In this document: positions 4,597 to 56,471 of the stretch, piece after piece
Layout: each line of letters begins with the position of its first letter
Numbering within the stretch: position 1 is the first letter of the stretch
Assembly: GCA_046483495.1 (NCBI GenBank)
Contig: JAWODC010000092.1
Coordinates: forward strand, 128,153 to 192,152
Length of the DNA stretch: 64,000 nt
Direction of reading: 5' to 3'
Source of the DNA: Desulfobacterales bacterium
GTDB lineage: Bacteria; Desulfobacterota; Desulfobacteria; Desulfobacterales; UBA5616
Notes under the pieces: model-generated
What the model was told of the DNA's origin: nothing
Databases searched by the model: none
Seen by the model: only the letters and a program-made list of their open reading frames with translations
Program-made: the position numbers and the translations under genes

Positions 4597-4606
4597 GACG
4601 GATTCC

Positions 4607-8895: not shown

Positions 8896-8899
8896 GATG

Positions 8900-10849: not shown

Positions 10850-10923
10850 GTCCTTTATCTTTCTTCCCTTTTCGGGAAAATCAAGTGGTCAATCACCGCA
10901 AACACGGGCTTGACTCATGGCAT

Positions 10924-13900: not shown

Positions 13901-14280
13901 TGCCGGGCCCTTTGAAACCAAGGGTGCTGATCGGAGGTGTGGTTCACCACCAGTTCTGTGATCACCCGAATGCCCCGTTGGTGGGCGCTTCGAAGAAACA
14001 ACCTGAAATCGGAAAGCGAACCGTAATCCGGGTGGATATCCTTGTAGTCGGAAATGTCGTACCCGTCGTCTTTTTGGGGGGAGGGATAAAACGGCAGCAG
14101 CCAAATGGCCGTTATGCCGAGGTCCTGAAGATAATCGAGCTTTTGAGAAAGCCCTTTGAAATCACCGATTCCGTCGGCATCGCCGTCGAAATAGCTTTTG
14201 ACGTGAAGTTGGTAAATAACGGCATCCTTGTACCAGTATGGATCATTGCTCAATAGCGATTCGCTTTTAGCTGTCTGCAT
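10924..14280 (-). CDS. treS: Trehalose synthase / maltokinase fusion (TreS-Pep2/Mak)
   Basis: 1118 aa. The N-terminal half (WYKDAVIYQLHVKSYFDGDADGIGDFKGL..., DGFRMDAVPYL, FLRNHDELTLE) is TreS. The C-terminal half (RCHGDYHLGQVLYTGKDFQIIDFEGEP...RSALRDVAGMLRSFHYAA) is the maltokinase (aminoglycoside-phosphotransferase-like) domain. Confidence 0.9.
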   Translation of the reverse strand: MQTAKSESLLSNDPYWYKDAVIYQLHVKSYFDGDADGIGDFKGLSQKLDYLQDLGITAIWLLPFYPSPQKDDGYDISDYKDIHPDYGSLSDFRLFLRSAHQRGIRVITELVVNHTSDQHPWFQRARQSPPHSKYRKWYVWSETPDRYTETRIIFQDFESSNWTWDPVAKAYFWHRFYSHQPDLNYDHPQVRKAILNALEFWLNQGVDGFRMDAVPYLYEREGTNCENLPETHAFVKEIRAHVDEKYKNRMLLAEANQWPEDAAAYFGEGDEFQMAFHFPLMPRLYMALQMEDSFPILDILEQTPAICSSCQWAIFLRNHDELTLEMVTDEERDYMYRVYAHDRKMRLNLGIRRRLAPLLGNHRRRIELMNALLFSMPGTPIIYYGDEIAMGDNIHLGDRGGVRTPMQWSGDRNAGFSRANPQALYLPVNISPEYHFEVINVEVQQQNPHSVLWWMKRIITLRKRFKAFSRGTITFLRPENNHILAFIRSYEEENILVVVNLSRFVQYVELDLSAYQGAVPVELFGRTAFPFIGPAPYFLSLGPHSFFWFYLTRQPAEAAAAEPPASAIPELTISGKLNSIFSGPQKAMLEEVLSQYIKKARWFGGKARVIKQTTIRDVFPVGRSETPIAVLFVEVDYTQGDSETYVLPVTFSEAPESDEILQQNRWAAIAWLKHKSKKTVCLLHDGMAATRVCVLLLRMIERRKRIKVGKGAVAAVKTSAFAHLKKQLPETVITMVSASEQSNTSVIFGNQLILKLIRRLTPGINPDFEIGQFLTRKNFPHTPHLAGAIAFYPEKEEPMTLSTLHEYVANQGDAWRHTLSRLNAMFENALAEKERFLTFISSESPSLSLISESLPPEPLELIGSYMDSARLIGIRTAQLHITLASASKGSVFSPEPFTKLYQRSLYQSVRSLALKTLPLLKKTMGKLPADLQEDANAVVRLEADIFKRYQLLLTRKFTAMRIRCHGDYHLGQVLYTGKDFQIIDFEGEPARPVSERRIKRSALRDVAGMLRSFHYAAYAALFSIKSRGITDGAENEAFLKSCAMRWYQWVRILFLQAYLSEAGEEAFLPENIGEFRILLEIYLLDKALYELAYELNNRPEWLRIPLKGLLELMREHTE

Positions 14281-14294
14281 ACTCCGATTTCCGT

Positions 14295-16295
14295 TTAGAG
14301 GTAGTAATCAAAATCTTTCTCCGTTCTGACTTTTCGTCGAATCGCAAAAATATGAGCCGGTATAATCCGGGGATCGAGTTCCACATAATTGCGGTCACCG
14401 TACCAGAGGAAGCGTGCGTCACTCAAAAGATCGTGCATTTGAAAGGATTTTGCCGGATCCAGATGCATTGCGGAAAGCGGGAGATCCACCCAACCGGCAT
14501 GCGTGTGGTGGGGGTCTAAATTAACCACGACAAGGATGGTATTGGACCGGTCGTCGGAACGTTTGCTATAGCAGATCATTTGTTCATTATCCACCGGAAG
14601 AAAGGCCAGACTTCGGTTGTTGTGCAGGGCAGGGTTTTCCTTCCGGATGTGGTTTACCCGGGCGATGAGCTCCTTTAAGCTCATCGGAGAGGAAATATCC
14701 CACGTTTTGGTTTCGTATTTTTCCGAATCGAGGTACTCCTCGCTGCCCGGCTCCTTGGGTTCATTCATGCACAACTCGAAAGCGGGTCCGTAAATGCCGT
14801 AGCTTGCACCCAGTGTGGCGGCCAATACCAGACGGACGATAAAGGCCGCTCTTCCCCCCGTCTGCAGGTATTCGGTCAGAATGTCCGGCGTGTTCGGCCA
14901 GAGATTGGGTCTGAAATAGTCACGAACCTCTGTCCGGGTCAATTCCGTGAAATACTTTTGGATATCATAAGCGGTGTTTCGCCATGTAAAGTAGGTGTAG
15001 GATTGGCTGAATCCAGCCTTCGCCAACCGGTACATGACCTTGGGCCGGGTGAATGCTTCGGACAAAAAGATCGTTTCCGGATACCTGGACCTGACGTTTC
15101 CGATCAGCCATTCCCAAAACGCGAAAGGTTTGGTATGCGGGTTATCCACACGGAAAATCCGTATCCCCTGCTCTATCCAATAGAACGTAACCCGCATCAG
15201 TTCCCGGGCCAGTTCCCGCCATCGGTCCGATTCGAAATCCAATGGATAAATATCCTCATATTTTTTTGGGGGATTTTCCGCGTATTGAATGGAGCCGTCC
15301 GGCCGATGACGAAACCACTCGGGATGTTCACTTACGTAAGGATGATCCGGGGAGCATTGGAATGCCAGGTCCATGGCGATTTCGATCCCGTATTCTTCAG
15401 CCTTTTTGACCAAATTTCTAAAATCCGCCAATGTCCCCAACAAGGGGTGTATTTCCGTGTGGCCGCCCTCACGGACTCCGATGGCCCAGGGGCTCCCCGG
15501 GTCTTCCGGGCCGGCAACAGGAGTGTTGTTTTTCCCTTTCCGATGGGTTCGGCCGATGGGATGGATCGGAGGCAGGTATAAAATGTCGAATCCCATATCC
15601 GCAATATAGGGGAGCCGTTTTTCGCAATCGTCAAAGGTCCCGTGTCGCCGTTCTTCCCCGGCACAGGAACGCGGAAACATTTCATACCAACTGCCGTACA
15701 ACGCCCGTTTGCGCTCGGCCAGGACCAACAGTTCTTTTTCATAAAAGGAGGCTTTTTTTCTGTCGGTGTGTTTTTGCATCAGGTGCAGCAGGCCTTTACC
15801 GAGCGCAAGTGCAATTCGTCCTTTTTGGGGCTTGTCTGAGCGGATATCGCTTGCCCGGCTTCGCAGCCAATCGCCGTCGGATTTGGGTGCCGGATCCGCC
15901 GTTTTTTCGATCAGTGCGGCACCTGTGAGAAGATCGATTTCCACATCCTGGCCGGCGGCTGTTTTTTTGGCCAGATCCCGGCGCCAGGTTTTGAATTCGT
16001 CAATCCATGCGCACAGGGTGTAGACGTAACCCCCGATCTCCTCGATCGAAAAAGCGGCATACCAGCGGTCGTTCAGGAGAAGCCGCAAGGGGGTTTCTTC
16101 CCATTGAACACCGTCTTTCGGGCGATGCATTAAAACGCCGGAAATCAAGTCATGGCCGTCGGTAAAAATATCGGCCGACACCGCCAGTTTTTCACCGAGG
16201 GTTCGCTTAACGGGAAACCGGCCGCCGTCGATTTCGGGTGACACCCTTTCAATGATGACGCGGGGCAAGAAGGTCTCGGTTTGGATGTCAATCAT
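14295..16295 (-). CDS. glgE: Alpha-1,4-glucan:maltose-1-phosphate maltosyltransferase (GlgE)
   Basis: 666 aa. The N-terminus VIIERVSPEIDGGRFPVKRTLGE is typical of GlgE. GH13_3 blocks SWYEMFPRS, DILYLPPIHPIG and IFRVDNPHTKPF are present. Confidence 0.88.
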   Translation of the reverse strand: MIDIQTETFLPRVIIERVSPEIDGGRFPVKRTLGEKLAVSADIFTDGHDLISGVLMHRPKDGVQWEETPLRLLLNDRWYAAFSIEEIGGYVYTLCAWIDEFKTWRRDLAKKTAAGQDVEIDLLTGAALIEKTADPAPKSDGDWLRSRASDIRSDKPQKGRIALALGKGLLHLMQKHTDRKKASFYEKELLVLAERKRALYGSWYEMFPRSCAGEERRHGTFDDCEKRLPYIADMGFDILYLPPIHPIGRTHRKGKNNTPVAGPEDPGSPWAIGVREGGHTEIHPLLGTLADFRNLVKKAEEYGIEIAMDLAFQCSPDHPYVSEHPEWFRHRPDGSIQYAENPPKKYEDIYPLDFESDRWRELARELMRVTFYWIEQGIRIFRVDNPHTKPFAFWEWLIGNVRSRYPETIFLSEAFTRPKVMYRLAKAGFSQSYTYFTWRNTAYDIQKYFTELTRTEVRDYFRPNLWPNTPDILTEYLQTGGRAAFIVRLVLAATLGASYGIYGPAFELCMNEPKEPGSEEYLDSEKYETKTWDISSPMSLKELIARVNHIRKENPALHNNRSLAFLPVDNEQMICYSKRSDDRSNTILVVVNLDPHHTHAGWVDLPLSAMHLDPAKSFQMHDLLSDARFLWYGDRNYVELDPRIIPAHIFAIRRKVRTEKDFDYYL

Positions 16296-16359
16296 AAATC
16301 CGCCCTATTGGATGTGTCGGCGTTGGCATTGTATTGTGTGCGATGGACAACCTCCCGTT

Positions 16360-17904
16360 TCAGACGTAGGGTGAAGCCGGGTAGTTTTGGATGGGCGGCC
16401 GGGGTGCGGCCGGAGCCTTCGTTGCCGGTTTATATTCGACCAGAGGGAAATCCTTTACTTCGTGTATGAATACGGAATTCAGAAAAGCTTCCACCCAATA
16501 GTAAATGTCCTGTCTGCGAATGGCTTTTCTCATCATTTTCATGCGGTATTGGCGCTGGGCCGGCTCCATTTGCGTGGCGGTAAAAAGGGTTTGGGCCACC
16601 GATTCGACATGGTAGGGATTGACCAGCAGCGCGCCCCGTTGAAGCTGGGCGCTGGCGCCTGCGAATTCGCTCAAGATAAGCACCCCGTTTTCTTCCACGT
16701 TTGAGGCGCAGTATTCTTTTGCCACAAGGTTCATACCGTCCTTCAACGGTGTGATGAATGCGACATCCGAAGCGCGGTAAAATGCCAACAGCTCTTGCCG
16801 GTCAATGGAGCGGAACATGTAATGGATCGGCGTCCACCCGGGGCGTCCGTATCGCCCGTTTATTTCACTGATCTTGCGTTCGAGCTGTTCTTTCAGCTCC
16901 AGGTACTTGGGAATCGTAACCCGGCTGGGAACGACGAGCTGAAGCAGTGACATGTTGCCCCGAAGTTGCGGGTACCTGTCGAGGGCCATTTCAAAAGCCG
17001 CCAGTCTTTCCGGAATTCCCTTGGTGTAATCCAGACGATCGATTCCCAGAACGATGTGTTCGACATCGAGTTCTTCTTGAACTTCCCTGACCCTGTCTTC
17101 CACTTCCCGCTTTTCCGCGTTTCTGGCAAATTCATCGAAATCGATGCTGATGGGGAAATTGCCGATGCGGATTTCCCGATCGTTCACCTGGGCGGTGATC
17201 ACCTTGCCCCGCTCCCGGATGACGACATCCCGAAAAAGGGCGCGGATGCACCGAATAAAATTCCTCCGGTCCCGCATGGTCTGAAATCCGACCAAATCGT
17301 AGGACAGCAGGCCTTCCATGACTTCGTACCGCCAGGGCAGTTTGAAAAAGAGATCCGGAGAAGGGAAGGGGATGTGAAGGAAAAATCCGATTTTGGAGGT
17401 CACTCCCATCTCCCGAAGGTTTTTGCCGGCCATCATCAAATGATAGTCATGGATCCAGATATGGTCGCCGTTGATGATGCTTTCATGCGTGCTTTGTGCA
17501 AATTTACGGTTTACCGCCTGATAAGCCTTCCAGTAGGAGGGGTCGAAATTGCAGCGGGTCTGAAGATCATGAAACAGGGGCCATATAATTTCATTGGCGA
17601 ATCCATAATAAAAACTGTCCACTTCCTCGGGCGTGAGCATCACCGGTTCGAAGCTGTACCCGGTGCCGTCCGTCGTTTCATTGAGCAGTTTTTTAATGAG
17701 GTGTTTTTTGCCTTTGGTCGTTCCCGGCCATCCGATCCATAATCCTCCCCGGTTCCGAAGAACCGGCACCATGGCTGTCACCAATCCGCCGGAGCCGTCT
17801 TTTACCTCAAATCTTCCCGAGTCATCCTGCGATATTGTCGAAGGCAGCCTGTTCGATATGATGATGAGACGATTTTTTGCCGTTTTTTCAGTGATTAGAC
17901 TCAT
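16360..17904 (-). CDS. otsA: Alpha,alpha-trehalose-phosphate synthase (GT20)
   Basis: 514 aa. [38 protein letters not shown] and [14 protein letters not shown] are OtsA/GT20 blocks. A Pro-rich tail of about 40 aa follows. Confidence 0.88.
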
Positions 17905-29588: not shown

Positions 29589-31448
29589 ATGAATATTTTC
29601 CACAAAGGAGCCGATCTGTATAACAAGTGTAAAGCGGGTTGCGGCATGAGCATGCCGTCCGTCCTATTCATGACCGGATATGTCTTGGGGATCGTATGCA
29701 TGATGGCGGGTTTTCCCGGATTCGGAGCGGCCCAGGATGGCATGATTCGTTACGAGGTTCTGTTTAAAGGGCTTCCCACCGATGATATCAGAGACATTCT
29801 GCGCCAGGTCTCCGATACCGCCGGTCGACAGGATGAGCCGGCATTGTCCCTGGGATTTCTGAAACGGCGCATGCAGCAGGACCTTCCGGCAATAGAAAAG
29901 GTTTTTCGATCCAAGGGGTATTACGGAGTCCGGATCGATACCGAAGTCGACACCGAAGAACGACCGGCGCGTGCCGTTTTCCGGATTGCGCCAGGACCCG
30001 TCTACAGGCTGAAAAAGGTCGAAATCGATCTTGCCGGCCCGCCGGATGAACCATTGCCAGCGCCGCCCGATGTCGACAGGCCGGCGCTTCAACCCGGCCG
30101 TCCGGCGGAGGCCGAATCCATCATCGCGTTCCGCTCTTCGATTACCCGGTATTTCCAAAATCGGGGTTTTCCCCTGGCAAAAACGGCTGAACCGGACGTG
30201 GTCGTCGATCATCAGGACCATGCCGTCTCAGTGACGTATGCGGTCACTACCGGGCCGCGGGCCGTTTTCGGAGCGACTGAAATCACGGGGGCGGAAACGG
30301 TCGAATCCTCGTTTATTCGGGAAAAATTCCCCTGGAAGCCGAGAGATCCCTTCAAAGCCGATCTTCTGGACAGGGTCAGGGCCGACCTTCTTGAAACCGG
30401 TCTCTTCAGTGTCGTGGTGTTCAGCACCGGAGACCGCGTCGATGCACAAGGCCGTTTGCCGCTCACACTGCGGGTGAGGGAACGGAAGCACAGAACCCTC
30501 AAGCTCGGACTCGGATATACGACGGACGAGGATTTCATTGCCCGGGTCAATTGGGAGCACCGCAATTTACTTCACCGGGGAGAATCACTGAGTTTCCGCA
30601 GCCATGTATCGGGAATACGCCTGACACTCCAAGGGGCTTTTGAAAAGCCGAACGTCTTTCGGCCGGATCAGTCCTTTATTTTTGATCTGCGCCTGTCGGA
30701 TGAATATCCCGAGGCTTATACCAGCCGCAGTTTGACCGGATCGGCCGTTCTTAAGCGGAAGCTTGGATCCGGTATGGAGGCCGGCCTTGGTGTGGCGCTT
30801 ACCTACTCGGAAATCGAACAGTTTGACCAGACCGACACCTTTCAGTTGGTTTCCCTGCCGGCCACCTTTAACCGGGATCGGCGAGACAGCATTCTCGATC
30901 CCGCTTCGGGAGGAAACCTCGCGCTTCGAGCCGCCCCGTTCTATGACTTTATCGGCGGGGAAACCGGATTTGTAAAGGGCTCGGGTCTTTACAGCCATTA
31001 TTTGAGGATCTTTTCAAAACCGCGGGCTGTCCTTGCCCTGAAGGGGGTGGCCGGATTTATCGGCGGGAGCCCCTTGGAGGATGTTCCGGCGGATATCCGG
31101 TTTTATGCCGGAGGGGGGGGCTCCATCCGGGGATATGCATATCAATCCGCTGGAAACGTCATGGGAGAAGACAATGATCCGGTGGGCGGGCGATCCCTGC
31201 TCACCCTGTCTTCCGAGTTGAGAATCCGCATCACCGAGAGCATTGGTTTGGTTCCCTTCCTGGACGGGGGGAACGTTTTCGAATCGGCGTACCCGGATTT
31301 CGACCGCAGCCTGCTCTGGGGGGCCGGTCTGGGCCTGCGCTATATAACCGCTGTCGGCCCGCTGCGCCTCGATTTGGCGTTCCCAATAAACGAGCGTTCA
31401 TTTGATGATCCGTTTCAACTGTACATCAGTATCGGTCAGGCATTTTAA
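29589..31448 (+). CDS. tamA: TamA/BamA-family outer-membrane protein (Omp85; POTRA + beta-barrel)
   Basis: 619 aa. The N-terminal hydrophobic signal is followed by POTRA-like repeats and a C-terminal barrel (RFYAGGGGSIRGY...LRLDLAFPI...LYISIGQAF). It lies directly upstream of a TamB-like gene. The exact start is uncertain (several Met in the first 22 codons). Confidence 0.8.
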   Translation: MNIFHKGADLYNKCKAGCGMSMPSVLFMTGYVLGIVCMMAGFPGFGAAQDGMIRYEVLFKGLPTDDIRDILRQVSDTAGRQDEPALSLGFLKRRMQQDLPAIEKVFRSKGYYGVRIDTEVDTEERPARAVFRIAPGPVYRLKKVEIDLAGPPDEPLPAPPDVDRPALQPGRPAEAESIIAFRSSITRYFQNRGFPLAKTAEPDVVVDHQDHAVSVTYAVTTGPRAVFGATEITGAETVESSFIREKFPWKPRDPFKADLLDRVRADLLETGLFSVVVFSTGDRVDAQGRLPLTLRVRERKHRTLKLGLGYTTDEDFIARVNWEHRNLLHRGESLSFRSHVSGIRLTLQGAFEKPNVFRPDQSFIFDLRLSDEYPEAYTSRSLTGSAVLKRKLGSGMEAGLGVALTYSEIEQFDQTDTFQLVSLPATFNRDRRDSILDPASGGNLALRAAPFYDFIGGETGFVKGSGLYSHYLRIFSKPRAVLALKGVAGFIGGSPLEDVPADIRFYAGGGGSIRGYAYQSAGNVMGEDNDPVGGRSLLTLSSELRIRITESIGLVPFLDGGNVFESAYPDFDRSLLWGAGLGLRYITAVGPLRLDLAFPINERSFDDPFQLYISIGQAF

Positions 31449-31469
31449 GGCGATGCTTAAAACAGGAGG

Positions 31470-34400
31470 ATGCAAATATTTCATATGGCTCCACGTCCGG
31501 GTTTTTATTTGAAAAAAAGTGCAAAATGGCTGGGCGTGGGGCTTTTGATAATCATGATCCTGATGTCCATTCTCTTTTTCCTGGTGCAAACGGATACGGC
31601 CAAGAACACCCTCGCCCGGATGATTTCTGAAAGCCTCAGCAGTGACGAAATCGCCATTCACATCCGTGGGTTGGACGGATGGATTCCCTTCAGCATCACC
31701 GTGGATCATCTGACGGTGGCCGACTCTGGAAAAGAAGCGGTCAGCGCGAGGGATGTGCGGCTGCACTGGGATCCCTTTTCGCTGATTGACCGCCCCCTGC
31801 GTATTACCGAAGTAAGCGCCTCATCGGTCCGGGTGGAAAGAATCCCCGAAGCCGGGAAGGATCAGGCTGAAGAGGAGGAGTTTCCTCCCTCTCGTCCCCT
31901 TTCACTGCCGGGGCTTGCCGTCGAGGATCTGCACATCGAACAGTTATATCTGGGTGAACCGGTCATCGGAATGCAGGCGGAATTTACAATCCGCGGGGAA
32001 CTGACATCTTCCGAACGGCGAGGCGAATTCATGAGCCGCCTGATGGTGAAGCGAACGGATCAGCCCGGTACCCGGCTCGATTTTGATCTCAGCGTCCGGG
32101 GAAAGGCGCCTGTCATGACGTTGGATTTCCGGTTTCGGGAACCCGAAGACGGGGTGCTTCACCGTCTGATCGGGTTGAGGGATGTCGGGCCGCTGGATGT
32201 CGAGCTCACCGGGAAAGGCCCGCTTGCCGAATGGCCCGGACGATTGGCCGCACATTTACAGGGAGCGGGTTCCTTGAAGTCCGATATCATGTTGCATGCG
32301 GAAAAGACGTTCACCATCGACAGCGAGGGCACGCTCCAATTGCGGGAAACCATCCTCCCGAGTGCCTTATCTCCTCTTTTTGACACGAACGGTCTGCCGT
32401 TCGAACTGAACCTGGATCTCGGTACGACCGAAAACATTTTCCCGCATGAGGTGCATTTCCGAACCCCTTGGGCGCGAACCCAATGGGTCCTCCATTCTGC
32501 AGAAAAAGGACCGGTGGCCGGCCGCTATGAGCTGGCGGTGCCGGACCTGTCCGTTTTTTCGAGCCTCACGGCGGGGGATGCCGGCGGCAGCCTGCAGCTT
32601 GAAGGGAGCTTCTCCGGCCCCCTCGATCAGCCCGAGCTCGATTTTGCCCTGGCGCTTGCGGATGTGACATTTGGTGATTACCAGGCCGAGGCCCTGCACA
32701 TGAACGCCGTGATCACCCGCCCGCAAAACGGATTGTCGGCGACCCCCCGCATGTTGGTCGATGCAAGCGGGCGCATAGCGGACCTGCGGCAGGTTGAACA
32801 AAAAAAGTTGCTTTTTCCGGATCCTTTCACATGGCGGGTGAGTGCCGATATCACGCGTTCAGCCCCGAAGACCTGGCAGGTGGATTCATTGATCCTGGCG
32901 GCTGAAGAGCAGCGGCTTTCCTTTTCCGGCCGGATCGACACCGACCTTTCCAATGTTGAAGGAAAACTGACGGCGGATTTTAATAACCCTTTATCCGCAG
33001 CTCCCTTCCTTGCCCCGGACGTACAGGGGAACATACACATTGCGGCGGACGTGCGGGCCAATCCGGCTGCACTCAAAATTTTCTCGGACTTCAACGGATA
33101 CACCCAAAACATCAGCGGCCTTCATGCTGAACTGGATCCGCTGCTGAAAGAGCGGGCGGAATTCGGCGGACGGATTGCCTTCGTTGCAGATGAATACGTC
33201 GAAATCGAAGGATTTGAGGTTCAGACGAAATGGGCCCTGCTTTCCGGCCGCTCCGGACTCAACCTGGATACGGAAAGCATTTCGGGATCGTTCGACATTG
33301 CATTCCCCGGGCTTTCACCCTTTTCACCCCTTGTCGGAGCGGAACTCTCGGGCGCTCTGGATATCGACGCAAGCATCGAGGGACCCATCGCGAAACCCAT
33401 GGTGCATATCCATGCAGCATCCAGGGGGCTGTCCCTTAATGGCCGACAGGTAGAACAGGTCGAAGCTTCGGTGAATGTCCGCGGCCTTGGCGCCGAAACG
33501 AAAGGTGCTTTTGCCGTGAATGCCGTTCTCGATCAGAAAGCCATTACGGCACGCGGCGATGTCGGCATGTCTGATGATTGGGTGGACATTTCCGGACTGC
33601 AATTTGCCGCCGACGGGGCGGCTCTTCAGGGGCGGATGAGAATCGGTTTGGATCAACCGGCCTTAATCGGAAGGCTGCAGGGTCGGGCCATGCCGCTTTC
33701 ATCGATATCATCGCTGTATGGATATGCTGCATCCGGTTCGGCGGATCTTTCAATTGAATTGCAAAATCCGCGGGGGGCCCAGGAGGCGATGTTCGAAGTA
33801 TTGGTGGATGCCCCGGCTTCCGAATTCGGTACAGCGGACAACATAACTTTATCCGGCAGCGTGACGGATCTTTTCGGCGAACCTCTGGCCGACATATCGG
33901 CGAATGTGCAAAATTTCAGCAAGGATGACGTGAAAGTCGACAGTCTTTCTTTTTCCGCAAAGGGAAGGGCCGCCGAATCCTCCTTTCAATTGCGTTTCGA
34001 AGGGGCCCATGCGGGAAGGCCCCTTAACCTTGAAACACTGGGATCATTTCGACGGGACAATGCGGATCTCATGCGAGTGCGCCTTGACCGCTTCGGAGGT
34101 AATATAGGGCAATCCGAATTCGGGCTGTCCGAACCCCTTGTATTTAAAAAGCAAGGACCCGAATATGAATTGGAGCCGCTGATCATCGATCTGGGTGGGG
34201 GAACGATTACCGCGGCGGGGCTTTACGGTCCCGAAACGCTCAGAACCGACGTTCGTATTGAATCCGTGCCCCTGACCGTCCTGGCGAATTTCGGCCTGCC
34301 AACATTTCAAGGGGACGTCAGTGGGGTGCTGAATCTTTCCGGTCGGCCCGAAAAACCGAGGGCGGATTTCAATATGCGCCTGCGGAAAGTGCGGCTGAAA

Positions 34401-35873
34401 ATTACGGAAACGGATCTGCCCCCGGTGCGTGTCGATGTCGACGGCCGATATGCCGACGATGCCCTCAGTGTCATTTTGAGTGCGGCGGGATTAGAGGACA
34501 TGGCGATATCGGCCGAGATCCGGGCACCGGTGCGCATCGCTGTAAGTCCGGAAAATTTCATTACCGAGCCCCGCGGGGATTTGGAAGGCCGGCTGTTCGG
34601 GCAGGTGGGGCTCGACAATTTGCCGGCTGTTTGGCATCTGGAAAACCAGGATCTGGCGGGCAGCCTCACAGCGGATCTCGACGTAAGCGGCTCATTTGGA
34701 GCGCCCCGCCTGAGCGGAGCCGTCCGGCTTGAAAACGGAAAATATGAAAATTTAAAAAACGGTATTCTTCTGCGGGAGGTGCGGGTCTCGGCCGAAATGG
34801 CCGGTCGGGAGATTGTACTGGAGGAGTTCGCCGCCACGGACGGTGAAGACGGGAGAATATCGGCCGGTGGGCGGGTTGTCCTTGACCGCGCATCGCATTT
34901 TCCGCTTGACTTGAAGATCCGCCTGGATGACGCCACCCTGGTCCGCCGCACCGACCTTACGGCCGAATTCGAAGGAGGGCTGAATTTTTCCGGCAATCTT
35001 CAGGAATTGACACTTACCGGGCAGCTGGAGGTGGGGCCGGCCGAGTACCGCCTGCCTGAGGAGCTGCCCGTCGATGTTCCGGAGCTGGATGTACGGGAAA
35101 TCAATATCCCGCCCGAGCGGGAACCGGAAAAAGCAAAAGCACCCGAAGATGGAACCCGATTGAACCTGGATATCCGGGTGAGGTCAAAAGGGCAGGTGTT
35201 TATCCGCGGCCGCGGCTTGACATCGGAATGGCAGGGTAAGCTCGAAGTCGGCGGAACCGCCCGGGCACCCGTCCTTATCGGGCAACTCTCGATTGTCAAG
35301 GGCCGCTATATATTTTACGACAAGCCCTTCGAACTCACCGAAGGCGAGATCCGGTTTTCCGGGGGCATTCCTCCTTTGCCGCGATTCAACGTCACCGCAG
35401 TGCACGAACGTCCCGATCTCACGGTTCGAATCATAATATCCGGAACTCCCGACAGTCTGGATGTGGAATTCTCATCGGATCCTGCTCTGCCCAATGACGA
35501 AATTCTTTCCCGGCTTCTCTTCGGAAAAAGCGTTGCGGACATTACCCCTTTGCAGGCACTTCGATTGGCAAACGCCATCGGGTCGCTGGCCGGTGCGGGG
35601 GGCGGGGGTGTTATGGGTTTTGTGGACAGTACGCGCAGGCTGATCGGCGTGGACGAATTGAGCATCTCGCCCGATGCGGAAGGGGACACTACGGTGCGCA
35701 TCGGAAAGTATTTAACCGAAGATGTGTTTGTGCAGGTGGAGAAAGGTTTCGGTCCTGAAGACCGGGAAACGGTTTCCGTGGAAGTCCGGTTATCATCCAA
35801 TCTCACCCTGGAAAGCGAGGCCGGGGTCCAGGGGGAGGGGGGCGCCATCCTGAACTGGCGATGGGATTACTAG
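31470..35873 (+). CDS. tamB: Translocation and assembly module protein TamB (DUF490 C-terminus)
   Basis: 1467 aa with an N-terminal TM anchor and a long beta-rich repetitive body. The C-terminal region (DELSISPDAEGDTTVRIGKYLTEDVFVQV...ILNWRWDY) is typical of DUF490/TamB. Confidence 0.85.
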   Translation: MQIFHMAPRPGFYLKKSAKWLGVGLLIIMILMSILFFLVQTDTAKNTLARMISESLSSDEIAIHIRGLDGWIPFSITVDHLTVADSGKEAVSARDVRLHWDPFSLIDRPLRITEVSASSVRVERIPEAGKDQAEEEEFPPSRPLSLPGLAVEDLHIEQLYLGEPVIGMQAEFTIRGELTSSERRGEFMSRLMVKRTDQPGTRLDFDLSVRGKAPVMTLDFRFREPEDGVLHRLIGLRDVGPLDVELTGKGPLAEWPGRLAAHLQGAGSLKSDIMLHAEKTFTIDSEGTLQLRETILPSALSPLFDTNGLPFELNLDLGTTENIFPHEVHFRTPWARTQWVLHSAEKGPVAGRYELAVPDLSVFSSLTAGDAGGSLQLEGSFSGPLDQPELDFALALADVTFGDYQAEALHMNAVITRPQNGLSATPRMLVDASGRIADLRQVEQKKLLFPDPFTWRVSADITRSAPKTWQVDSLILAAEEQRLSFSGRIDTDLSNVEGKLTADFNNPLSAAPFLAPDVQGNIHIAADVRANPAALKIFSDFNGYTQNISGLHAELDPLLKERAEFGGRIAFVADEYVEIEGFEVQTKWALLSGRSGLNLDTESISGSFDIAFPGLSPFSPLVGAELSGALDIDASIEGPIAKPMVHIHAASRGLSLNGRQVEQVEASVNVRGLGAETKGAFAVNAVLDQKAITARGDVGMSDDWVDISGLQFAADGAALQGRMRIGLDQPALIGRLQGRAMPLSSISSLYGYAASGSADLSIELQNPRGAQEAMFEVLVDAPASEFGTADNITLSGSVTDLFGEPLADISANVQNFSKDDVKVDSLSFSAKGRAAESSFQLRFEGAHAGRPLNLETLGSFRRDNADLMRVRLDRFGGNIGQSEFGLSEPLVFKKQGPEYELEPLIIDLGGGTITAAGLYGPETLRTDVRIESVPLTVLANFGLPTFQGDVSGVLNLSGRPEKPRADFNMRLRKVRLKITETDLPPVRVDVDGRYADDALSVILSAAGLEDMAISAEIRAPVRIAVSPENFITEPRGDLEGRLFGQVGLDNLPAVWHLENQDLAGSLTADLDVSGSFGAPRLSGAVRLENGKYENLKNGILLREVRVSAEMAGREIVLEEFAATDGEDGRISAGGRVVLDRASHFPLDLKIRLDDATLVRRTDLTAEFEGGLNFSGNLQELTLTGQLEVGPAEYRLPEELPVDVPELDVREINIPPEREPEKAKAPEDGTRLNLDIRVRSKGQVFIRGRGLTSEWQGKLEVGGTARAPVLIGQLSIVKGRYIFYDKPFELTEGEIRFSGGIPPLPRFNVTAVHERPDLTVRIIISGTPDSLDVEFSSDPALPNDEILSRLLFGKSVADITPLQALRLANAIGSLAGAGGGGVMGFVDSTRRLIGVDELSISPDAEGDTTVRIGKYLTEDVFVQVEKGFGPEDRETVSVEVRLSSNLTLESEAGVQGEGGAILNWRWDY

Positions 35874-50901: not shown

Positions 50902-51243
50902 TCAATCATTGTTCCGGTCGTAAGGCGGCTGCCGAACGCCGTGGCGGTCCTCCCAGAAATCCGGATCGTAATCGCCGTCGCCGCGTCCTTGCTCATCTTC
51001 CCAATAATCCTCCTGATCCTCTTCGTCGACACCATAGTAAGCCCTGCCGCGGCGGTCTTCCGTATCATAAGGCGGCTGTCGAACACCGTAACGGTCCTCC
51101 CAGAAATCCGGATCATAATCGCCGTCGCCGCGTTCCTGCCGATCCGCCCTACTATCGGTTCCGTCCTGTCCGAATGCGGGCATGGCGGCAAACAGCGTCA
51201 AGGCTAAAAGAGTGAAGAAAATTGACGTTAGTTGCCCTCTCAT
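50902..51243 (-). CDS. Secreted acidic repeat protein (113 aa), unknown function
   Basis: Signal peptide MRGQLTSIFFTLLALTLFAAMPAFG. The mature part carries two copies of RGDGDYDPDFWEDR(Y/H)GVRQPPYD separated by an acidic linker. Confidence 0.6.
   Translation of the reverse strand: MRGQLTSIFFTLLALTLFAAMPAFGQDGTDSRADRQERGDGDYDPDFWEDRYGVRQPPYDTEDRRGRAYYGVDEEDQEDYWEDEQGRGDGDYDPDFWEDRHGVRQPPYDRNND
50917..51132. repeat. Intragenic direct repeat, 2 x 69 bp (50917-50985 and 51064-51132), 147-bp period
   Basis: The two DNA copies are nearly identical (for example cggtcctcccagaaatccggatc[g/a]taatcgccgtcgccgcg). They encode the duplicated 23-aa module of the secreted protein. Confidence 0.85.
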
Positions 51244-51682: not shown

Positions 51683-52915
51683 ATGACCAAAAAATGGCAT
51701 ATTACAAAAATTCTTTTTATTTTTGTGCTGGCACTGGTCTCCATCTATTTTTCTTCTCGTTCGGCAGCCAGTGCTGAGCCCAAAGCTGGTGATGTTATCG
51801 ATGCCGGTAATGTCGGACAATTTAAAAATTACCTCCCCTATTTTATGGTTCGATGGGTTGAGGGATCTTGGGGATTTGAATCGCCCATCGCTATTACGGT
51901 AAAGAAGCCCGAAGATTGGCCGATAACCAGTGCATTCCGGAAAGCATCGGAGCAAAATATCGGCAAAGTCACACTCACATCCGAAGGGTTGATCGAAGGC
52001 TATACGGGTGTCGGTGTTCCTTTTCCGAATCCTAAAGAGCCGGATCTCGCACTTAAGATTATGTGGAACAAATTTTATATGGATCTGCCCGAAGACTGGA
52101 GCCTTCCGGATAGTTTCCTGGTATTTTCAAAAAGAAAGGGGGGAAGCGTTAGTGTATACAACAGCATTTATGACTGTCTCAAGTTCTCAGGCCGCACAAT
52201 ACGACCGCCCCTTCCGGAGCTTGACAATCCAAACGGTCTTTATTGGGCTACCATTCTCAATTCTAAAACGCCCCCGCTAAAAGATATGGCAACCTTAACA
52301 TGGCGATATAAAGATCCTACAAAATATGATGACATGTGGACCTATGTACCCACATTGCGGAGGACCTTGAGAATGATGTCTTCCGAGAGGGCGAACCCCA
52401 TCCAAGGTTCTCCAAGCACGTGGGATGAGATTTGGGGCTTTGATGGGCTTATCCCCCTGTTTACCTATAGGCTGCTCAGGAAAGAAAAAACGTTAATGAT
52501 AGCAAATATGCACACAACCGCCGATAAGCTCCCCGACGGGATGTACAATCATCCAATTCTCTTCGGTCAAAATGATCCCTATGAACTCGTAGACGCTTAT
52601 GTAATTGAAATCACATCCAAGGATCCCCGATACCCCAGTTCAAAGTGGGATTTTTGGGTCCGGGACAGGCACTGGGCAGGCTTTTATGCAGAGATATATG
52701 ATAAGCGAGGTGAGTTTTGGAAAAGCAATACCACTTCCTTTATCGTCAGGCCGCTCGGCAATTCAAAAACTGATTTTTACGCCCTCAGGTTGGGTGGTGG
52801 GGCTGTAGACTACAAGACCCAATATTGGACCATAAACTTTGTCGGTGATCTTAACACGAATACCGGACTAGACCAAGAGCGTTTTGATCCAAGTATTTTC
52901 GGCGGGGGATGGTAG
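51683..52915 (+). CDS. DUF1329-family exported protein (LolA-like outer-membrane lipoprotein-sorting fold family)
   Basis: 410 aa. The signal peptide (ILFIFVLALVSIYFSSRSAASA) is followed by WRYKDPTKYDDMWTYVPTLRRTLRMMSSERANPIQGS, which matches the conserved DUF1329 core. The RBS AAAGGAG lies upstream. Confidence 0.75.
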   Translation: MTKKWHITKILFIFVLALVSIYFSSRSAASAEPKAGDVIDAGNVGQFKNYLPYFMVRWVEGSWGFESPIAITVKKPEDWPITSAFRKASEQNIGKVTLTSEGLIEGYTGVGVPFPNPKEPDLALKIMWNKFYMDLPEDWSLPDSFLVFSKRKGGSVSVYNSIYDCLKFSGRTIRPPLPELDNPNGLYWATILNSKTPPLKDMATLTWRYKDPTKYDDMWTYVPTLRRTLRMMSSERANPIQGSPSTWDEIWGFDGLIPLFTYRLLRKEKTLMIANMHTTADKLPDGMYNHPILFGQNDPYELVDAYVIEITSKDPRYPSSKWDFWVRDRHWAGFYAEIYDKRGEFWKSNTTSFIVRPLGNSKTDFYALRLGGGAVDYKTQYWTINFVGDLNTNTGLDQERFDPSIFGGGW

Positions 52916-52974: not shown

Positions 52975-55284
52975 TTAGAGATTCAGGGCGGCCCTGCCGA
53001 TCACCAGATCCTGCATGTCTTGCGGCAGTTCCACGAATCGAGCACTGAAGCCTGCAACCCGCACCAGCAAATCGGGGTATTTTTCGGGGTTTTTTCTGGC
53101 ATCCATGAGCATCTCCTGCGATAGGAGGTTGCACATCAGATGGGTCCCCCCCATGGAGACCAGGTATGTTTTAAAGAGATTGGCCAGCATTTCGGTTTCC
53201 CCGTCGATGGTCAATGTCAAGGAACCGGTCCAGCTTCTTGCGTGATCCAATTTTGCCGCTGATCGAAAAACGTCGGTCGGACCGCCGTGAAAGGCGCTTT
53301 TTGCCGGGGCGATCCCGTCACTGAGCGGCTCGTGTGCCCTTCGTCCGTCGGCCGTTGCCGCCGTGGCTTCTCCGAAGTTCAAGGCGAATGTCAGGGAGTG
53401 GAAACCGGGAATGGAAGGCCCCGGACGGTCGGGCAATATACGGCATCGATGTTTATCCGCTTCATCGAGCCAGAAGTCAGCCACTTCCAATGCCAGATCA
53501 TCGACATAGTCGTCATCGTTCCCCCATTTGGGCGCATCGTGGAGTTTTTGTCTTAACCCGGCGTATCCTTCGAAATTCCGGTCCAAGGCGTTCAGCAAAT
53601 CGGAAATGGAACTGCTCTTTTCATCGAAGATCACCTTTTTTATCGCCGCCAATGAATCGGCGGCGGTGCCCAGCCCCACGGCATGCATGCCGATCCAATT
53701 GTCTCGTCCGCCGCCGGCCAAAACATCGAGCCCCTTTTCCATACACCCCCGCACGTTGATCGACGCATACGGAAGACATGTTTCATTGCGGAGAACGGCA
53801 TCAGTAAACTCGGATTCCGTGTTCAACATCGTGATGCCGTAGGCAATCTGCTTTTTGAAGGCATCCATTACATGGTCAACATCACGAAACGTCCGGGGAT
53901 CACCCGTTGAAAGCCCGATCCGTTTGCCCGTCAGCCGGTCGACACCGTCATTAAGGGCGAGGTCCAGCATTTTTACCAGATTGACCCAGGCACTGTGATC
54001 CTTCCGGGCATATGTCGTGAAATGCTGACAGCCGTCGATCGAATAATCGCGGGCTTCTTTCAATGGTATGCCGCGGCGCAGCAAGGCCGGAATAACGGCA
54101 TCGTCGCTGTTCAGTTGGGGCCGTCCTCCGCTGACCCGCATAACGTCGATGGCGCGCTTGAGAAGGTGATCCGGCGTCTTCTTGTTGATTCTGAGTCCGA
54201 ACTGCGGCTTGGGAATGCGCACAAGTTCGAGAGCGTCGAGCAGCATATACGTCATTTCATTGGTGGCATCCTGCCCGTGTTCGGTCTGACGTCCGATGGT
54301 GATGCCGTTGACATGCGAATCGAGATCGCTGATCGGGGAGCTGTTCTCGCCGAATTTAAACAGAAAATGGGCCAGCAGTTCAACGGCTTTTTCCCGGGTG
54401 ATTACGCCTTGGTCACGATCGGTTTTGTAATAAGGATAAAGGATAGCATCCAATCCGCCCATGGATATGGAATCCCCTCCGGATTCGATGCTGCCTACAA
54501 GAAAGGCGAACCATGAGGCCTGAAGGGCTTCATAAAAAGAGCGGGCCGGGTTGGAAGGCACGTGTTCACATATGCGTGCGATTTCTTCCAGCTCCTCTTT
54601 GCGCCGATGCTCCGCGTGACGGGATGTTTCCCGCGCCAATCGAGCATAGCGCAAGGAAAAATCGGCAACCGCATCGCAGACGATTGCTATTGCCTTGTAG
54701 AAAAACTGCTTGTAGACGGCATCCGTCGATTCGAGATCGATGCTTTCAAGCTTTACTTCCGCATCCTGCTTGATGCCGGAAAATCCCTTGGCGAGAATCG
54801 TCGGCAGATCGATAAGATAGCGCCCCCTTCGATTGCCCGCAACACCCATGTGCCAATACCACAAAGAAGCCTCTCTTCCGGCTTTCACGTTTGCCGGCAA
54901 ATGCGCACACAGCCTGTCCGTGCAGTTTTTTCCATTCCAGTAAGCCATCAGGGATTCGATTTCCTGTCTGGCTTGATCCGTTATGACAGGCATCAATGCG
55001 GGATTGACGTGAAACCCCATCTGGTCGGGTGTGGCGCCGAATTCCGGCCACAGGGGAATTCCGCGAAAGAAGCTTGCCCAGTGTCCGAGCAACCGTTCGT
55101 CATCCAAAATCCAAACGCTCATGCAGTCAAGAACAGCCTCGAGCATTCGGGCCGCCCGAATGACGCCCGGTTCGGAAGCATAACGCTTGTGGGCATCCAT
55201 GGCAATCAGCGCCCTTTGGGTGCAGAGCTGGGGCTTTTTTTCCCGGTAATGCTGCAGTAAGGAAAATATTCCGCTGTTCATCAT
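52975..55284 (-). CDS. Glycyl radical enzyme (PFL2/glycerol-dehydratase-like clade), substrate unknown
   Basis: The C-terminal glycyl radical motif is LVRVAGFSARFVEL. Family blocks include GGLDAILYPYYKTD. The Cys loop reads DYSIDGCQHFTT. The start was chosen at MMNSG (ATG 55282-55284) after GGAGG; the track ORF extends to 55701 without support. Confidence 0.88.
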   Translation of the reverse strand: MMNSGIFSLLQHYREKKPQLCTQRALIAMDAHKRYASEPGVIRAARMLEAVLDCMSVWILDDERLLGHWASFFRGIPLWPEFGATPDQMGFHVNPALMPVITDQARQEIESLMAYWNGKNCTDRLCAHLPANVKAGREASLWYWHMGVAGNRRGRYLIDLPTILAKGFSGIKQDAEVKLESIDLESTDAVYKQFFYKAIAIVCDAVADFSLRYARLARETSRHAEHRRKEELEEIARICEHVPSNPARSFYEALQASWFAFLVGSIESGGDSISMGGLDAILYPYYKTDRDQGVITREKAVELLAHFLFKFGENSSPISDLDSHVNGITIGRQTEHGQDATNEMTYMLLDALELVRIPKPQFGLRINKKTPDHLLKRAIDVMRVSGGRPQLNSDDAVIPALLRRGIPLKEARDYSIDGCQHFTTYARKDHSAWVNLVKMLDLALNDGVDRLTGKRIGLSTGDPRTFRDVDHVMDAFKKQIAYGITMLNTESEFTDAVLRNETCLPYASINVRGCMEKGLDVLAGGGRDNWIGMHAVGLGTAADSLAAIKKVIFDEKSSSISDLLNALDRNFEGYAGLRQKLHDAPKWGNDDDYVDDLALEVADFWLDEADKHRCRILPDRPGPSIPGFHSLTFALNFGEATAATADGRRAHEPLSDGIAPAKSAFHGGPTDVFRSAAKLDHARSWTGSLTLTIDGETEMLANLFKTYLVSMGGTHLMCNLLSQEMLMDARKNPEKYPDLLVRVAGFSARFVELPQDMQDLVIGRAALNL

Positions 55285-55658
55285 CCGGCCTCCTTTTGTT
55301 GGGGGATATCGAACAGTAAACGTTATGGGGATCTGCATTACAGAATACGTTTTTAAGAGAGATGTCTTATTAGTCACATTATCATCACTTGCCGCCTCGA
55401 TCAAATCCTTTTCTACGTTCAGCACGTGGTATGCTCGATAATCGGCTTTTCGGCATTCGGCATGAACGGCGGTTCGAATTAAAGGAGTGTTGACAAGAGC
55501 ACCCGGAAAAGTGGTATTAAACCGAAAACGGTTGGACGGCGCCGCTCTCTTTCCCGTTGACGTTCGTTCCATGGCGCCGGCGAATGGCCCAAACCGCTTT
55601 GCCTTCGATGAGAAAGCCGAATCATTTCTTATAACGCGTGTAAAAAAGGAGTGTGGTG

Positions 55659-56471
55659 ATGCAGGTAAATGATAAAGTGATCGTCGTGACCGGCGGCGCA
55701 AACGGGATCGGCGAGTCCCTCTGCCGGCGATTCGTTAAAGAAGGTGCACGTGCGGTTGTGGCCGCCGACCTCGACGAGGAACGGGTGAAAGCCCTGGCGG
55801 ATGAATTGGGCATCCTGGGGATGAAAACGGACGTGGCCGACGAGTCGGACATCGTTCACCTGGTTCAAACAACCGAAAAACAGTTCGGTCCGATCGACCT
55901 TTTTTGTTCGAACGCCGGCATCACTTCATCCGACGCGCCCGGTTGGACCGCCGCTTCCGCAGAGAACGAAATCTGGCAAAAATCCTGGGAAATTCATGTC
56001 ATGGCCCATGTCTACGCCGCAAGGGCGGTGCTGCCGGGAATGATTGCACGGAAGAGCGGATATCTTCTGAATACATCTTCGGCAGCCGGTCTTCTCAACC
56101 AGATCGGAAGTGCTCCATATTCTACGACCAAGCATGCCGCTATCGGTTTTGCCGAAGCGTTGGCCATCACCCATGGGGATGACGGCATCAAGGTCTCGGT
56201 GCTGTGCCCCCAAGCGGTCCGGACCCGCATGATTGCGGGCGCCGAGGAAGGGTCGGCCGCGGTAGACGGCATTCTGGAGCCCGAAGAGGTGGCCGATTGC
56301 GTGATTCGGGGGCTTGCTGAAGAAACGTTTCTCATTCTGCCCCATCCGGAGGTGAAAACGTACTACCAGCGAAAAGCCTCCGACTACGATCGCTGGATCA
56401 ACGGAATGCTTCGGTTTGCCCGAAAAATCCTTCCCTACATGAAAGGGCGCAGCGAAAACACGCGTGAATAG
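55659..56471 (+). CDS. Short-chain dehydrogenase/reductase (classical SDR)
   Basis: VIVVTGGANGIGESL (TGxxxGIG), NAGI and the catalytic YSTTKHA (YxxxK) are present. ATG 55659 lies 6 nt after AAAGGAG. Confidence 0.85.
   Translation: MQVNDKVIVVTGGANGIGESLCRRFVKEGARAVVAADLDEERVKALADELGILGMKTDVADESDIVHLVQTTEKQFGPIDLFCSNAGITSSDAPGWTAASAENEIWQKSWEIHVMAHVYAARAVLPGMIARKSGYLLNTSSAAGLLNQIGSAPYSTTKHAAIGFAEALAITHGDDGIKVSVLCPQAVRTRMIAGAEEGSAAVDGILEPEEVADCVIRGLAEETFLILPHPEVKTYYQRKASDYDRWINGMLRFARKILPYMKGRSENTRE

Follow-up and report, generated by a model that had tools for sequence, protein, structure and literature searches.

What reaction can be expected of a glycyl radical enzyme (GRE) whose catalytic loop lacks the customary glutamate, and how is such an enzyme switched on if no activase gene lies nearby? 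GREs are oxygen-sensitive radical enzymes that perform chemically hard anaerobic reactions. The question is raised by a gene on the minus strand of a 64,000-nucleotide stretch (hereafter the window) of contig JAWODC010000092.1 (193,114 bp), part of a Desulfobacterales metagenome-assembled genome (MAG). Its product, MFO7965907.1 at NCBI, is annotated as 'pyruvate formate lyase family protein' and is called here the GRE. A preliminary description had presented it as an orphan with an atypical loop and a chemistry outside the characterized classes. Our analyses indicate that it is likely a functional, activase-dependent GRE of a small uncharacterized subfamily, the C-Q-H clade, with a rebuilt active-site pocket, probably a different, anionic substrate, and an activase encoded elsewhere in the genome.

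The open reading frame (ORF) is not a chance one, since Pfam recognized both a PFL-like domain (PF02901; 530.5 bits, E 9e-159) and a Gly_radical domain (PF01228; 60.9 bits) in its translation. An AlphaFold2 model of the protein, built with 108 homologues, reached a pLDDT of 92.5 and a pTM of 0.93. Foldseek superimposed this model on glycerol dehydratase (1r8w) with a TM score of 0.95, in keeping with the ten-stranded barrel fold of PFL-like proteins; over glycerol dehydratase, propanediol dehydratase, HypD and CutC, TM scores were 0.94-0.95 and root-mean-square deviations ~2 Å at ~30% identity. The fold is thus that of glycerol dehydratase from Clostridium butyricum (1R8W/1R9D) and the other three enzymes, and the radical Gly and Cys residues align. 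Like the eliminases of this type, the GRE consists of a single large subunit, and the activases of its orthologues are of the kind that those eliminases use, ferredoxin insert included. The glycyl radical motif RVAGFSARF (residues 742-750) is intact, as the preliminary description had it. It fits the RVxG[FYW] consensus, with Phe after the Gly, and G745 is the presumed radical site. The presumed thiyl-radical residue is C419, which aligns with C433 of glycerol dehydratase and with the loop Cys of both HypD and CutC and occupies one of only 9 invariant columns across the 108 homologues.

The loop around C419 sets the protein apart. It reads DGCQHFTT (residues 417-424), and the best solved structures, which are ~30% identical to the GRE, have G-C-V-E where aligned residue by residue; the G-C-Q-H for G-C-V-E exchange first described therefore stands. 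A 2026 review from the Drennan laboratory states that a C-X-E motif is kept in all six C-O eliminases, CutC, three C-S lyases and three isomerases, and that in the known eliminases and isomerases its Glu is hydrogen-bonded to the substrate (PMC13450708). In all known enzymes of these two kinds the Glu takes a proton from a hydroxyl of the substrate. As H421 replaces this Glu, the predicted protein is, by the C-X-E criterion, not an eliminase or isomerase of a known kind. A loop without Glu has a precedent, because the phenylacetate decarboxylase PhdB is characterized and has a C482-x-Q484 loop; exchange of Q484 for Glu inactivates it, and its proposed proton donors are His327 and Tyr691 (PMC7079210). 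PhdB thus resembles the GRE in lacking the Cys-loop Glu, and it relies on His and Tyr elsewhere in its pocket to transfer protons. It differs in its C-x-Q rather than C-Q-H loop; moreover, we detected no specific sequence affinity of the GRE to the decarboxylases and no aromatic-acid context in the window.

The loop is therefore atypical with respect to the characterized eliminases and isomerases, whereas its rarity had been overstated: among 268 sampled homologues, 186 have C-X-E and 82 (~31%) something else, including CMR, CVY, CAS, CVH and more, with the C-Q-H clade accounting for 13 of the 82. In a full-text literature search for a GCQH-type loop motif, none of the matches listed concerned a GRE. 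As a separate observation, four PFL2-like homologues (P0030, P0037, P0063 and P0077) have Thr at the radical-Gly column and no C-X-E, and so fit a type described in 2024 as 'aminoacyl radical enzyme' (PMC11528403).

Comparison with family models gave a consistent picture. All NCBIfam equivalogs scored far under their cut-offs: HypD 453 of 1100, HpsG 431 of 1000, HpfG 420 of 1000, CutC 415 of 1050, the PflD type 329 of 1109, IAD 308 of 1100 and HPAD 220 of 1150. The PFL2-3 subfamily model gave 513 against a cut-off of 678, which the nearest C-X-E outgroups exceed (699-827 bits). Because neither the equivalogs nor PFL2-3 reached their cut-offs, the predicted protein is outside every characterized GRE class, as had been proposed, and sits in an uncharacterized subfamily of the PFL2/eliminase-like branch. 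Pyruvate or ketoacid formate-lyase chemistry was rejected, the loop having no Cys-Cys pair (G418-C419) and the PFL model TIGR01255 scoring 116 against 994. An X-succinate synthase was likewise rejected: there are no accessory beta or gamma subunits, and BssA/MasD-type structures are among the weakest PFL2-type PDB matches (238-268 bits; TM 0.88-0.92). The stand-alone PFL2 of Archaeoglobus fulgidus (2F3O; 776 aa, 354 bits to the query), also a PFL2-type GRE with no substrate assigned and close to the GRE in length, is only ~30% identical by Foldseek and falls outside the C-Q-H clade.

We then mapped the pocket by HMMER alignment to 1r8w, checked in a MAFFT alignment of the 268 sequences. H421 stands at the position of E435, the general base of glycerol dehydratase. 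In addition, H164, the general acid, corresponds to R155, D447 to H430, Y640 to H629 and H281 to D271, while Ser282 is kept as Ser272. The R155 column holds His in most homologues and Arg in the C-Q-H clade and the sister protein P0124. Two pocket segments of glycerol dehydratase are deleted, the GGYPMYQN loop carrying Y339 and LFNQKFHP (the NQKF loop), and the stretch from Cys419 to His430 is 3 residues shorter than in the median homologue. In alignment columns, the H-H-S-C-V-E-D-Y signature of glycerol-dehydratase-like homologues becomes R-D-S-C-Q-H-H-H in the clade, and G745, C419, Q420, H421, R155, D271, H430 and H629 are invariant across the 13 clade clusters. As aligned, the predicted pocket shows remodelling well beyond the loss of the Glu, with His and Arg in place of Glu, His, Asp and Tyr.

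How widespread is this arrangement? A search of 5.8 billion clusters returned 13 proteins with 57-100% identity to the GRE, followed by a sharp fall to 39%; the closest relatives outside the clade are 39-45% identical. The sequence DGCQHFTTYxRKDHSxW is invariant in all 13, and the next relatives have GC[AV]E. When 1.84 billion 50%-identity representatives were searched exhaustively with HMMER, the entire clade collapsed into a single one (1021 bits); the next match scored 529 bits at 39% identity, and 1,948 GRE representatives had E < 1e-30. The clade was monophyletic in 60 of 60 neighbour-joining bootstraps. It is rare: 185,579 species genomes contributed only 6 loci, from Dehalococcoidales/Dehalococcoidia, a Chloroflexota tar-biofilm MAG, an uncultured archaeon and a bin labelled Saccharibacteria, and JGI metagenomes 12 more. 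Because the clade is conserved across Desulfobacterales, Dehalococcoidia and archaea, its sequences argue for purifying selection on what would be a working active site.

The sister group is formed by the metagenomic proteins P0124 and P0125 (41-45% identity) in 39 of the 60 bootstraps, and by one of them alone in 12 more. They share R155, D271, H430, H629 and the G-F glycyl loop with the clade and also lack the Cys-loop Glu, their loops reading G-C-S-T and G-C-S-I. Unlike the GRE gene, that of P0124 lies in a sigma-54-regulated island, found in locus L013 (150-13855). This island, which is interrupted by insertion sequences, also encodes a CitE/RipC-like acyl-CoA lyase, an activase, the TRAP components DctPQM, a sigma-54 activator and an MFS organic-anion transporter, and from its predicted gene content looks like an organic-acid catabolic unit.

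The absence of an activase gene from the window was borne out by three approaches. The sole CxxxCxxC motif found in a real gene among the credible window ORFs was CVLDCTSC, in a calcineurin-like phosphoesterase and not an activase; tblastn with two cognate activases from orthologous loci retrieved nothing from the window (best E 0.8); and Pfam detected no Radical_SAM domain in ~50 window ORFs. As a meaningful trait, however, the orphan status did not hold up. In seven distinct orthologous loci (L001, L003, which is on the same contig as L010, L016, L025, L026, L028 and L029) an activase gene directly follows the GRE gene, 4-23 nt downstream in L001 (12300-13277), L003 and L016 (2594-3535) and adjacent in the other four. 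The encoded proteins have 313-325 aa, a CPLRCLWC motif and a two-cluster ferredoxin insert. Since these seven loci carry an adjoining canonical activase, the family is activase-dependent.

No activase was found in the available flanks (up to 10 kb) of 12 distinct Dehalococcoidia-type loci, or near the gene in L006, L008, L017, L019 and L024. A protein encoded upstream of the GRE in L024 was considered as a divergent activase and dismissed, as it has a ferredoxin domain but lacks a radical-SAM motif. Activase-less placement is the pattern of the Desulfobacterales and Dehalococcoidia branches; in the archaeal branch and one other, the activase gene follows that of the GRE immediately. Activases of the clade type can be encoded in trans, because two that are 55-56% identical to those of the clade occur with no GRE gene nearby (L098, 1983-2948; L099, 3409-4335). 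Both directly follow a zinc-dependent alcohol dehydrogenase gene, which in L099 itself follows E1-alpha/E1-beta (thiamine pyrophosphate) genes. Activases of this kind are candidates for trans-encoded partners in the activase-less lineages, and the activase of the GRE is most likely encoded elsewhere in the genome, outside the window.

Comparison of gene neighbourhoods among orthologues, a check proposed at the outset, revealed three arrangements. In arrangement A, of archaeal-type loci, the gene order is Fe-repressor, unknown gene and UDG, then GRE and activase, then class II aldolase. In arrangement B, in 12 distinct Dehalococcoidia-type loci, the GRE gene is convergent with two family-III CoA-transferase genes, whose products best match succinate-glutarate, formyl-CoA and succinyl-CoA:mesaconate transferases, all under cut-off. 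In L002, L004 and L005 the CoA-transferases are immediately followed by ACP, PlsX, 2-hydroxyacyl-CoA dehydratase with activators, DegV and a short-chain dehydrogenase/reductase (SDR), and 2-oxoacid:ferredoxin oxidoreductase genes lie close to arrangement B loci. Arrangement C, represented by L008 and L017, has no conserved partners; L008 has a convergent CoA-transferase of the acetyl-CoA hydrolase/transferase type, and L017 has PrpD-family and mesaconyl-CoA-hydratase-like genes. L016 (268-8250), which belongs with arrangement A, is the only clade locus in which the GRE gene appears to be co-transcribed with candidate pathway enzymes, of 2-hydroxyacid dehydrogenase-like type: its co-directional operon comprises GRE, activase, FAD_binding_4 (GlcD-like), CCG/FeS (TfrB/GlcF-like) and a second FAD_binding_4 (GlcD-like) genes. 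The predicted neighbours share a recurring theme that hints at small carboxylic, hydroxy- or dicarboxylic acids as CoA esters, no single link being strong.

The DUF1329 and SDR genes that flank the GRE gene in the window had been correctly located, as convergent and low in GC (45.8%) and as divergent, respectively, and we discarded them as functional clues: a search for these and the other window neighbours near clade members returned only generic SDR (26-28%) and sigma-54 AAA+ similarity, and neither gene accompanies another member of the clade. The presence of a calcineurin-like phosphoesterase gene within 3 kb of the GRE gene in the window, L017 and L008 was set down to coincidence, as the three are no orthologues of one another (best E 2e-4 over 73 aa).

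By homology, a separate radical-SAM activase encoded in trans would abstract H from Gly745 of the previously inert enzyme, and the glycyl radical would generate a thiyl radical on Cys419, which would attack the substrate. H421, H430 and H629 may take over the proton transfers done by Glu, His and Asp in the dehydratases, and Arg155, together with a Thr/Ser/Lys-rich loop, would favour an anionic substrate. Since the pocket appears rebuilt, a substrate different from the known ones is likely; it might be a small hydroxy-, oxo- or dicarboxylic acid, with His as the acid/base. Hints of an organic acid come from Arg155, the CoA-transferases of two families, the L016 operon, the L017 genes and the P0124 island. 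Two reaction types fit: elimination on a hydroxy acid with the help of His, and decarboxylation as in PhdB. We tentatively raise the possibility, which we do not hold to be probable, that the clade and its sisters with the shared R/D/H/H residues perform an undescribed GRE reaction, for instance one in which a C3-C5 hydroxy- or dicarboxylic acid undergoes radical elimination, decarboxylation or rearrangement and histidines, in place of the canonical Glu, serve proton transfer.

It may be that the GRE is instead an ordinary member of a characterized class, be it a dehydratase (of diols, glycerol or hydroxyproline) or a lyase (of choline or isethionate), in which His simply serves for the Glu base on the same kind of substrate. 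The best matches in sequence and structure are indeed the eliminases CutC, glycerol dehydratase, HypD and propanediol dehydratase, and Ser272 is retained. Yet identity is only ~30%, every equivalog score is 40-45% of its cut-off or less, four more pocket positions are changed and two pocket loops are gone, and no microcompartment or aldehyde-processing genes were found near the GRE gene in Pfam scans of the window ORFs. Moreover, according to mutagenesis cited in a passage of PMC7079210, E-to-Q or E-to-A replacement kills the activity of CutC and HypD. We regard this explanation as very unlikely. A second alternative is that the GRE decarboxylates a carboxylic acid by radical chemistry, as PhdB and HPAD do: the thiyl radical would oxidize the acid or abstract from it, and His/Gln would stand in for Glu as Gln does in PhdB. 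We consider this unlikely. PhdB also lacks the Cys-loop Glu, and its His327 and Tyr691 fall near the D271 and H629 positions, as estimated from numbering offsets. The glycyl loop has G-F as in HPAD (RVAGFTQ), the clade has Arg155, and the Dehalococcoidia copies are flanked on one side by 2-oxoacid:ferredoxin oxidoreductase genes and on the other by a 2-hydroxyacyl-CoA dehydratase/CoA-transferase operon, as is typical of amino-acid fermentation. Against it, the IAD and HPAD scores are below that of HypD, the Arg-bearing homologues with higher IAD scores (P0049, P0192 and P0230) are not sister to the clade, Q and H stand at +1 and +2 from the Cys rather than x-Q, and the ORF list has no small-subunit gene beside the GRE. 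The arylacetate decarboxylase class proper (HPAD, IAD, PhdB) was discarded on these scores and the missing small-subunit gene. The idea that Arg155 is a carboxylate anchor of the decarboxylase type was also downgraded: the corresponding Arg226 of IAD, an equivalence estimated from numbering offsets and not from an alignment, is essential and makes a cation-pi contact with the indole ring, and by score and tree the clade is no closer to the decarboxylases.

That the gene is decaying or silent, having arrived by horizontal transfer without an activase and ceased to yield an active radical enzyme, is the least probable of the three alternatives. It would account for the 64 kb with no activase, for the patchy taxonomy of the clade, which suggests transfer, for a monocistronic gene between unrelated ones, and for the foreign composition of the adjacent DUF1329 gene. 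However, the frame is full length and intact, all clade-invariant residues are present and the Shine-Dalgarno sequence is strong. Furthermore, P0002 and P0003 (Desulfobacterales-like, 74-76% identity) and many Dehalococcoidia copies are equally solo and fully conserved, which is unexpected for dead genes. Since its GC content (54.5%) and third-position GC content (GC3, 62.7%) agree with those of the host genes and its ribosome-binding site is strong, the predicted gene looks native and expressed.

Several points weigh against the activase-dependent, rebuilt enzyme that we favour. The pocket equivalences come from sequence alignments, not from model coordinates, and the model is of moderate confidence around Arg155 (10-residue block means of pLDDT 75 and 87). 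The cation-pi role of Arg226 in IAD means that an Arg at this position is no proof of anion binding. Activation in the host rests on inference, given 64 kb with no activase. Genomic context varies among the loci; common descent may be all that lies behind the Dehalococcoidia synteny, and the CoA-transferases are encoded on the opposite strand. Finally, any activity of the clade members is deduced from sequence.

Newly assigned GRE clades have so far each revealed a new pathway, such as those for choline to trimethylamine, hydroxyproline, isethionate and anhydro-sugar phosphates. The C-Q-H clade is a conserved group with His and Arg for the Glu and other pocket acid/base residues, and it is a concrete candidate for new substrate chemistry because every characterized eliminase or isomerase relies on the Cys-loop Glu. 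If the proposal of an undescribed reaction is true, a new functional class would join the six or seven recognized ones. The hosts are Desulfobacterales, Dehalococcoidia and archaea, lineages of sediments and the subsurface about whose carbon metabolism little is known. The orthologous loci provide a cognate activase sequence, and the alignment provides a list of residues and a shortlist of substrate classes. These prospects are tempered by the existence of hundreds of other uncharacterized GRE clusters without C-X-E and by the lack of a conserved pathway context that would make the substrate obvious. The clade is thus a variant within a known enzyme kind and a reasonable target for enzyme discovery.

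Table 1. Coordinates, in the window, of the GRE gene, its predicted key residues and its upstream region
Feature	Position	Strand	Basis or remark
GRE gene	52975-55284	-	769 aa + stop; translation
Gly loop R742-V-A-G745-F-S-A-R-F750	53035-53061	-	RVAGFSARF; invariant in clade
His629 (PGFHSL), at glycerol dehydratase Tyr640	53398-53400	-	alignments
His430 (RKDHS), at glycerol dehydratase Asp447	53995-53997	-	alignments
Cys loop D417-G-C419-Q420-H421-F-T-T424	54013-54036	-	DGCQHFTT; invariant in all 13 clade proteins
Asp271-Ser272 (GGDSIS), at glycerol dehydratase His281-Ser282	54469-54474	-	alignments
Arg155, at glycerol dehydratase His164 (general acid)	54820-54822	-	HMMER alignment and MAFFT column census
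Shine-Dalgarno AAAGGAGG	55289-55296	-	read from sequence; 4 nt 5' of ATG 55284, 7 nt 5' of ATG 55281
Intergenic GRE/SDR spacer, presumed promoter region	55285-55652		368 nt; no recognisable regulatory element

The translation opens with MMNSG, so that there are two candidate start codons (Table 1), and in the alignment homologues begin at the second Met. A 908-aa TTG-started ORF in the mechanical ORF list is upstream read-through and was rejected as the gene. The region upstream of the GRE gene was searched for regulatory signals. An Rfam scan of its 368 nt gave no match and no riboswitch, no sigma-54 -24/-12 box was found there (sister-clade loci have a sigma-54 activator upstream), and no sigma-70-like match lies inside the spacer. 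The ORF list and motif scan also yielded no small ORFs with FeS motifs adjoining the GRE gene.

On the downstream side, the convergent DUF1329/LolA-like gene (51683-52915, plus strand) is a compositional outlier, with GC 45.8% and GC3 47.9% compared with ~55% and ~63% in surrounding genes; by its sequence composition it is this gene, not the GRE gene, that looks recently acquired. The SDR gene (55653-56471, plus strand) diverges from the GRE gene across the spacer. In the Pfam scans, the window ORFs otherwise comprised an alpha-glucan/trehalose cluster, zinc transporters, GAPDH, TamA/TamB, sulfur-transport and rhodanese genes, MsrA, a hydrolase, TrmO, a sigma-54 activator and a PAS histidine kinase with a response regulator.

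Three other features of the window were recorded. Positions 569-17904 hold a contiguous alpha-glucan/trehalose cluster that, according to Pfam, is a GlgE-pathway set in a Desulfobacterales MAG. It encodes an amylase-like 848-aa protein, a GH77 4-alpha-glucanotransferase, a GH57+DUF3536 protein, two CBM48/amylase enzymes (one of them GlgB-like), a 1118-aa fusion of the TreS-maltokinase type, the GlgE maltosyltransferase and a GT20 trehalose-6-phosphate synthase. A translocation-assembly pair, TamA (Omp85/POTRA) and TamB (1467 aa), is encoded at 29589-35873. Lastly, a 113-aa ORF with a signal-peptide-like N terminus and no Pfam match is present at 50902-51243 on the minus strand. Within it, a stretch of 92 nt is directly repeated (50918-51009 and 51065-51156; the copies 84% identical), which gives two occurrences of the acidic motif DYDPDFWEDRxGVRQPPYD in the product.

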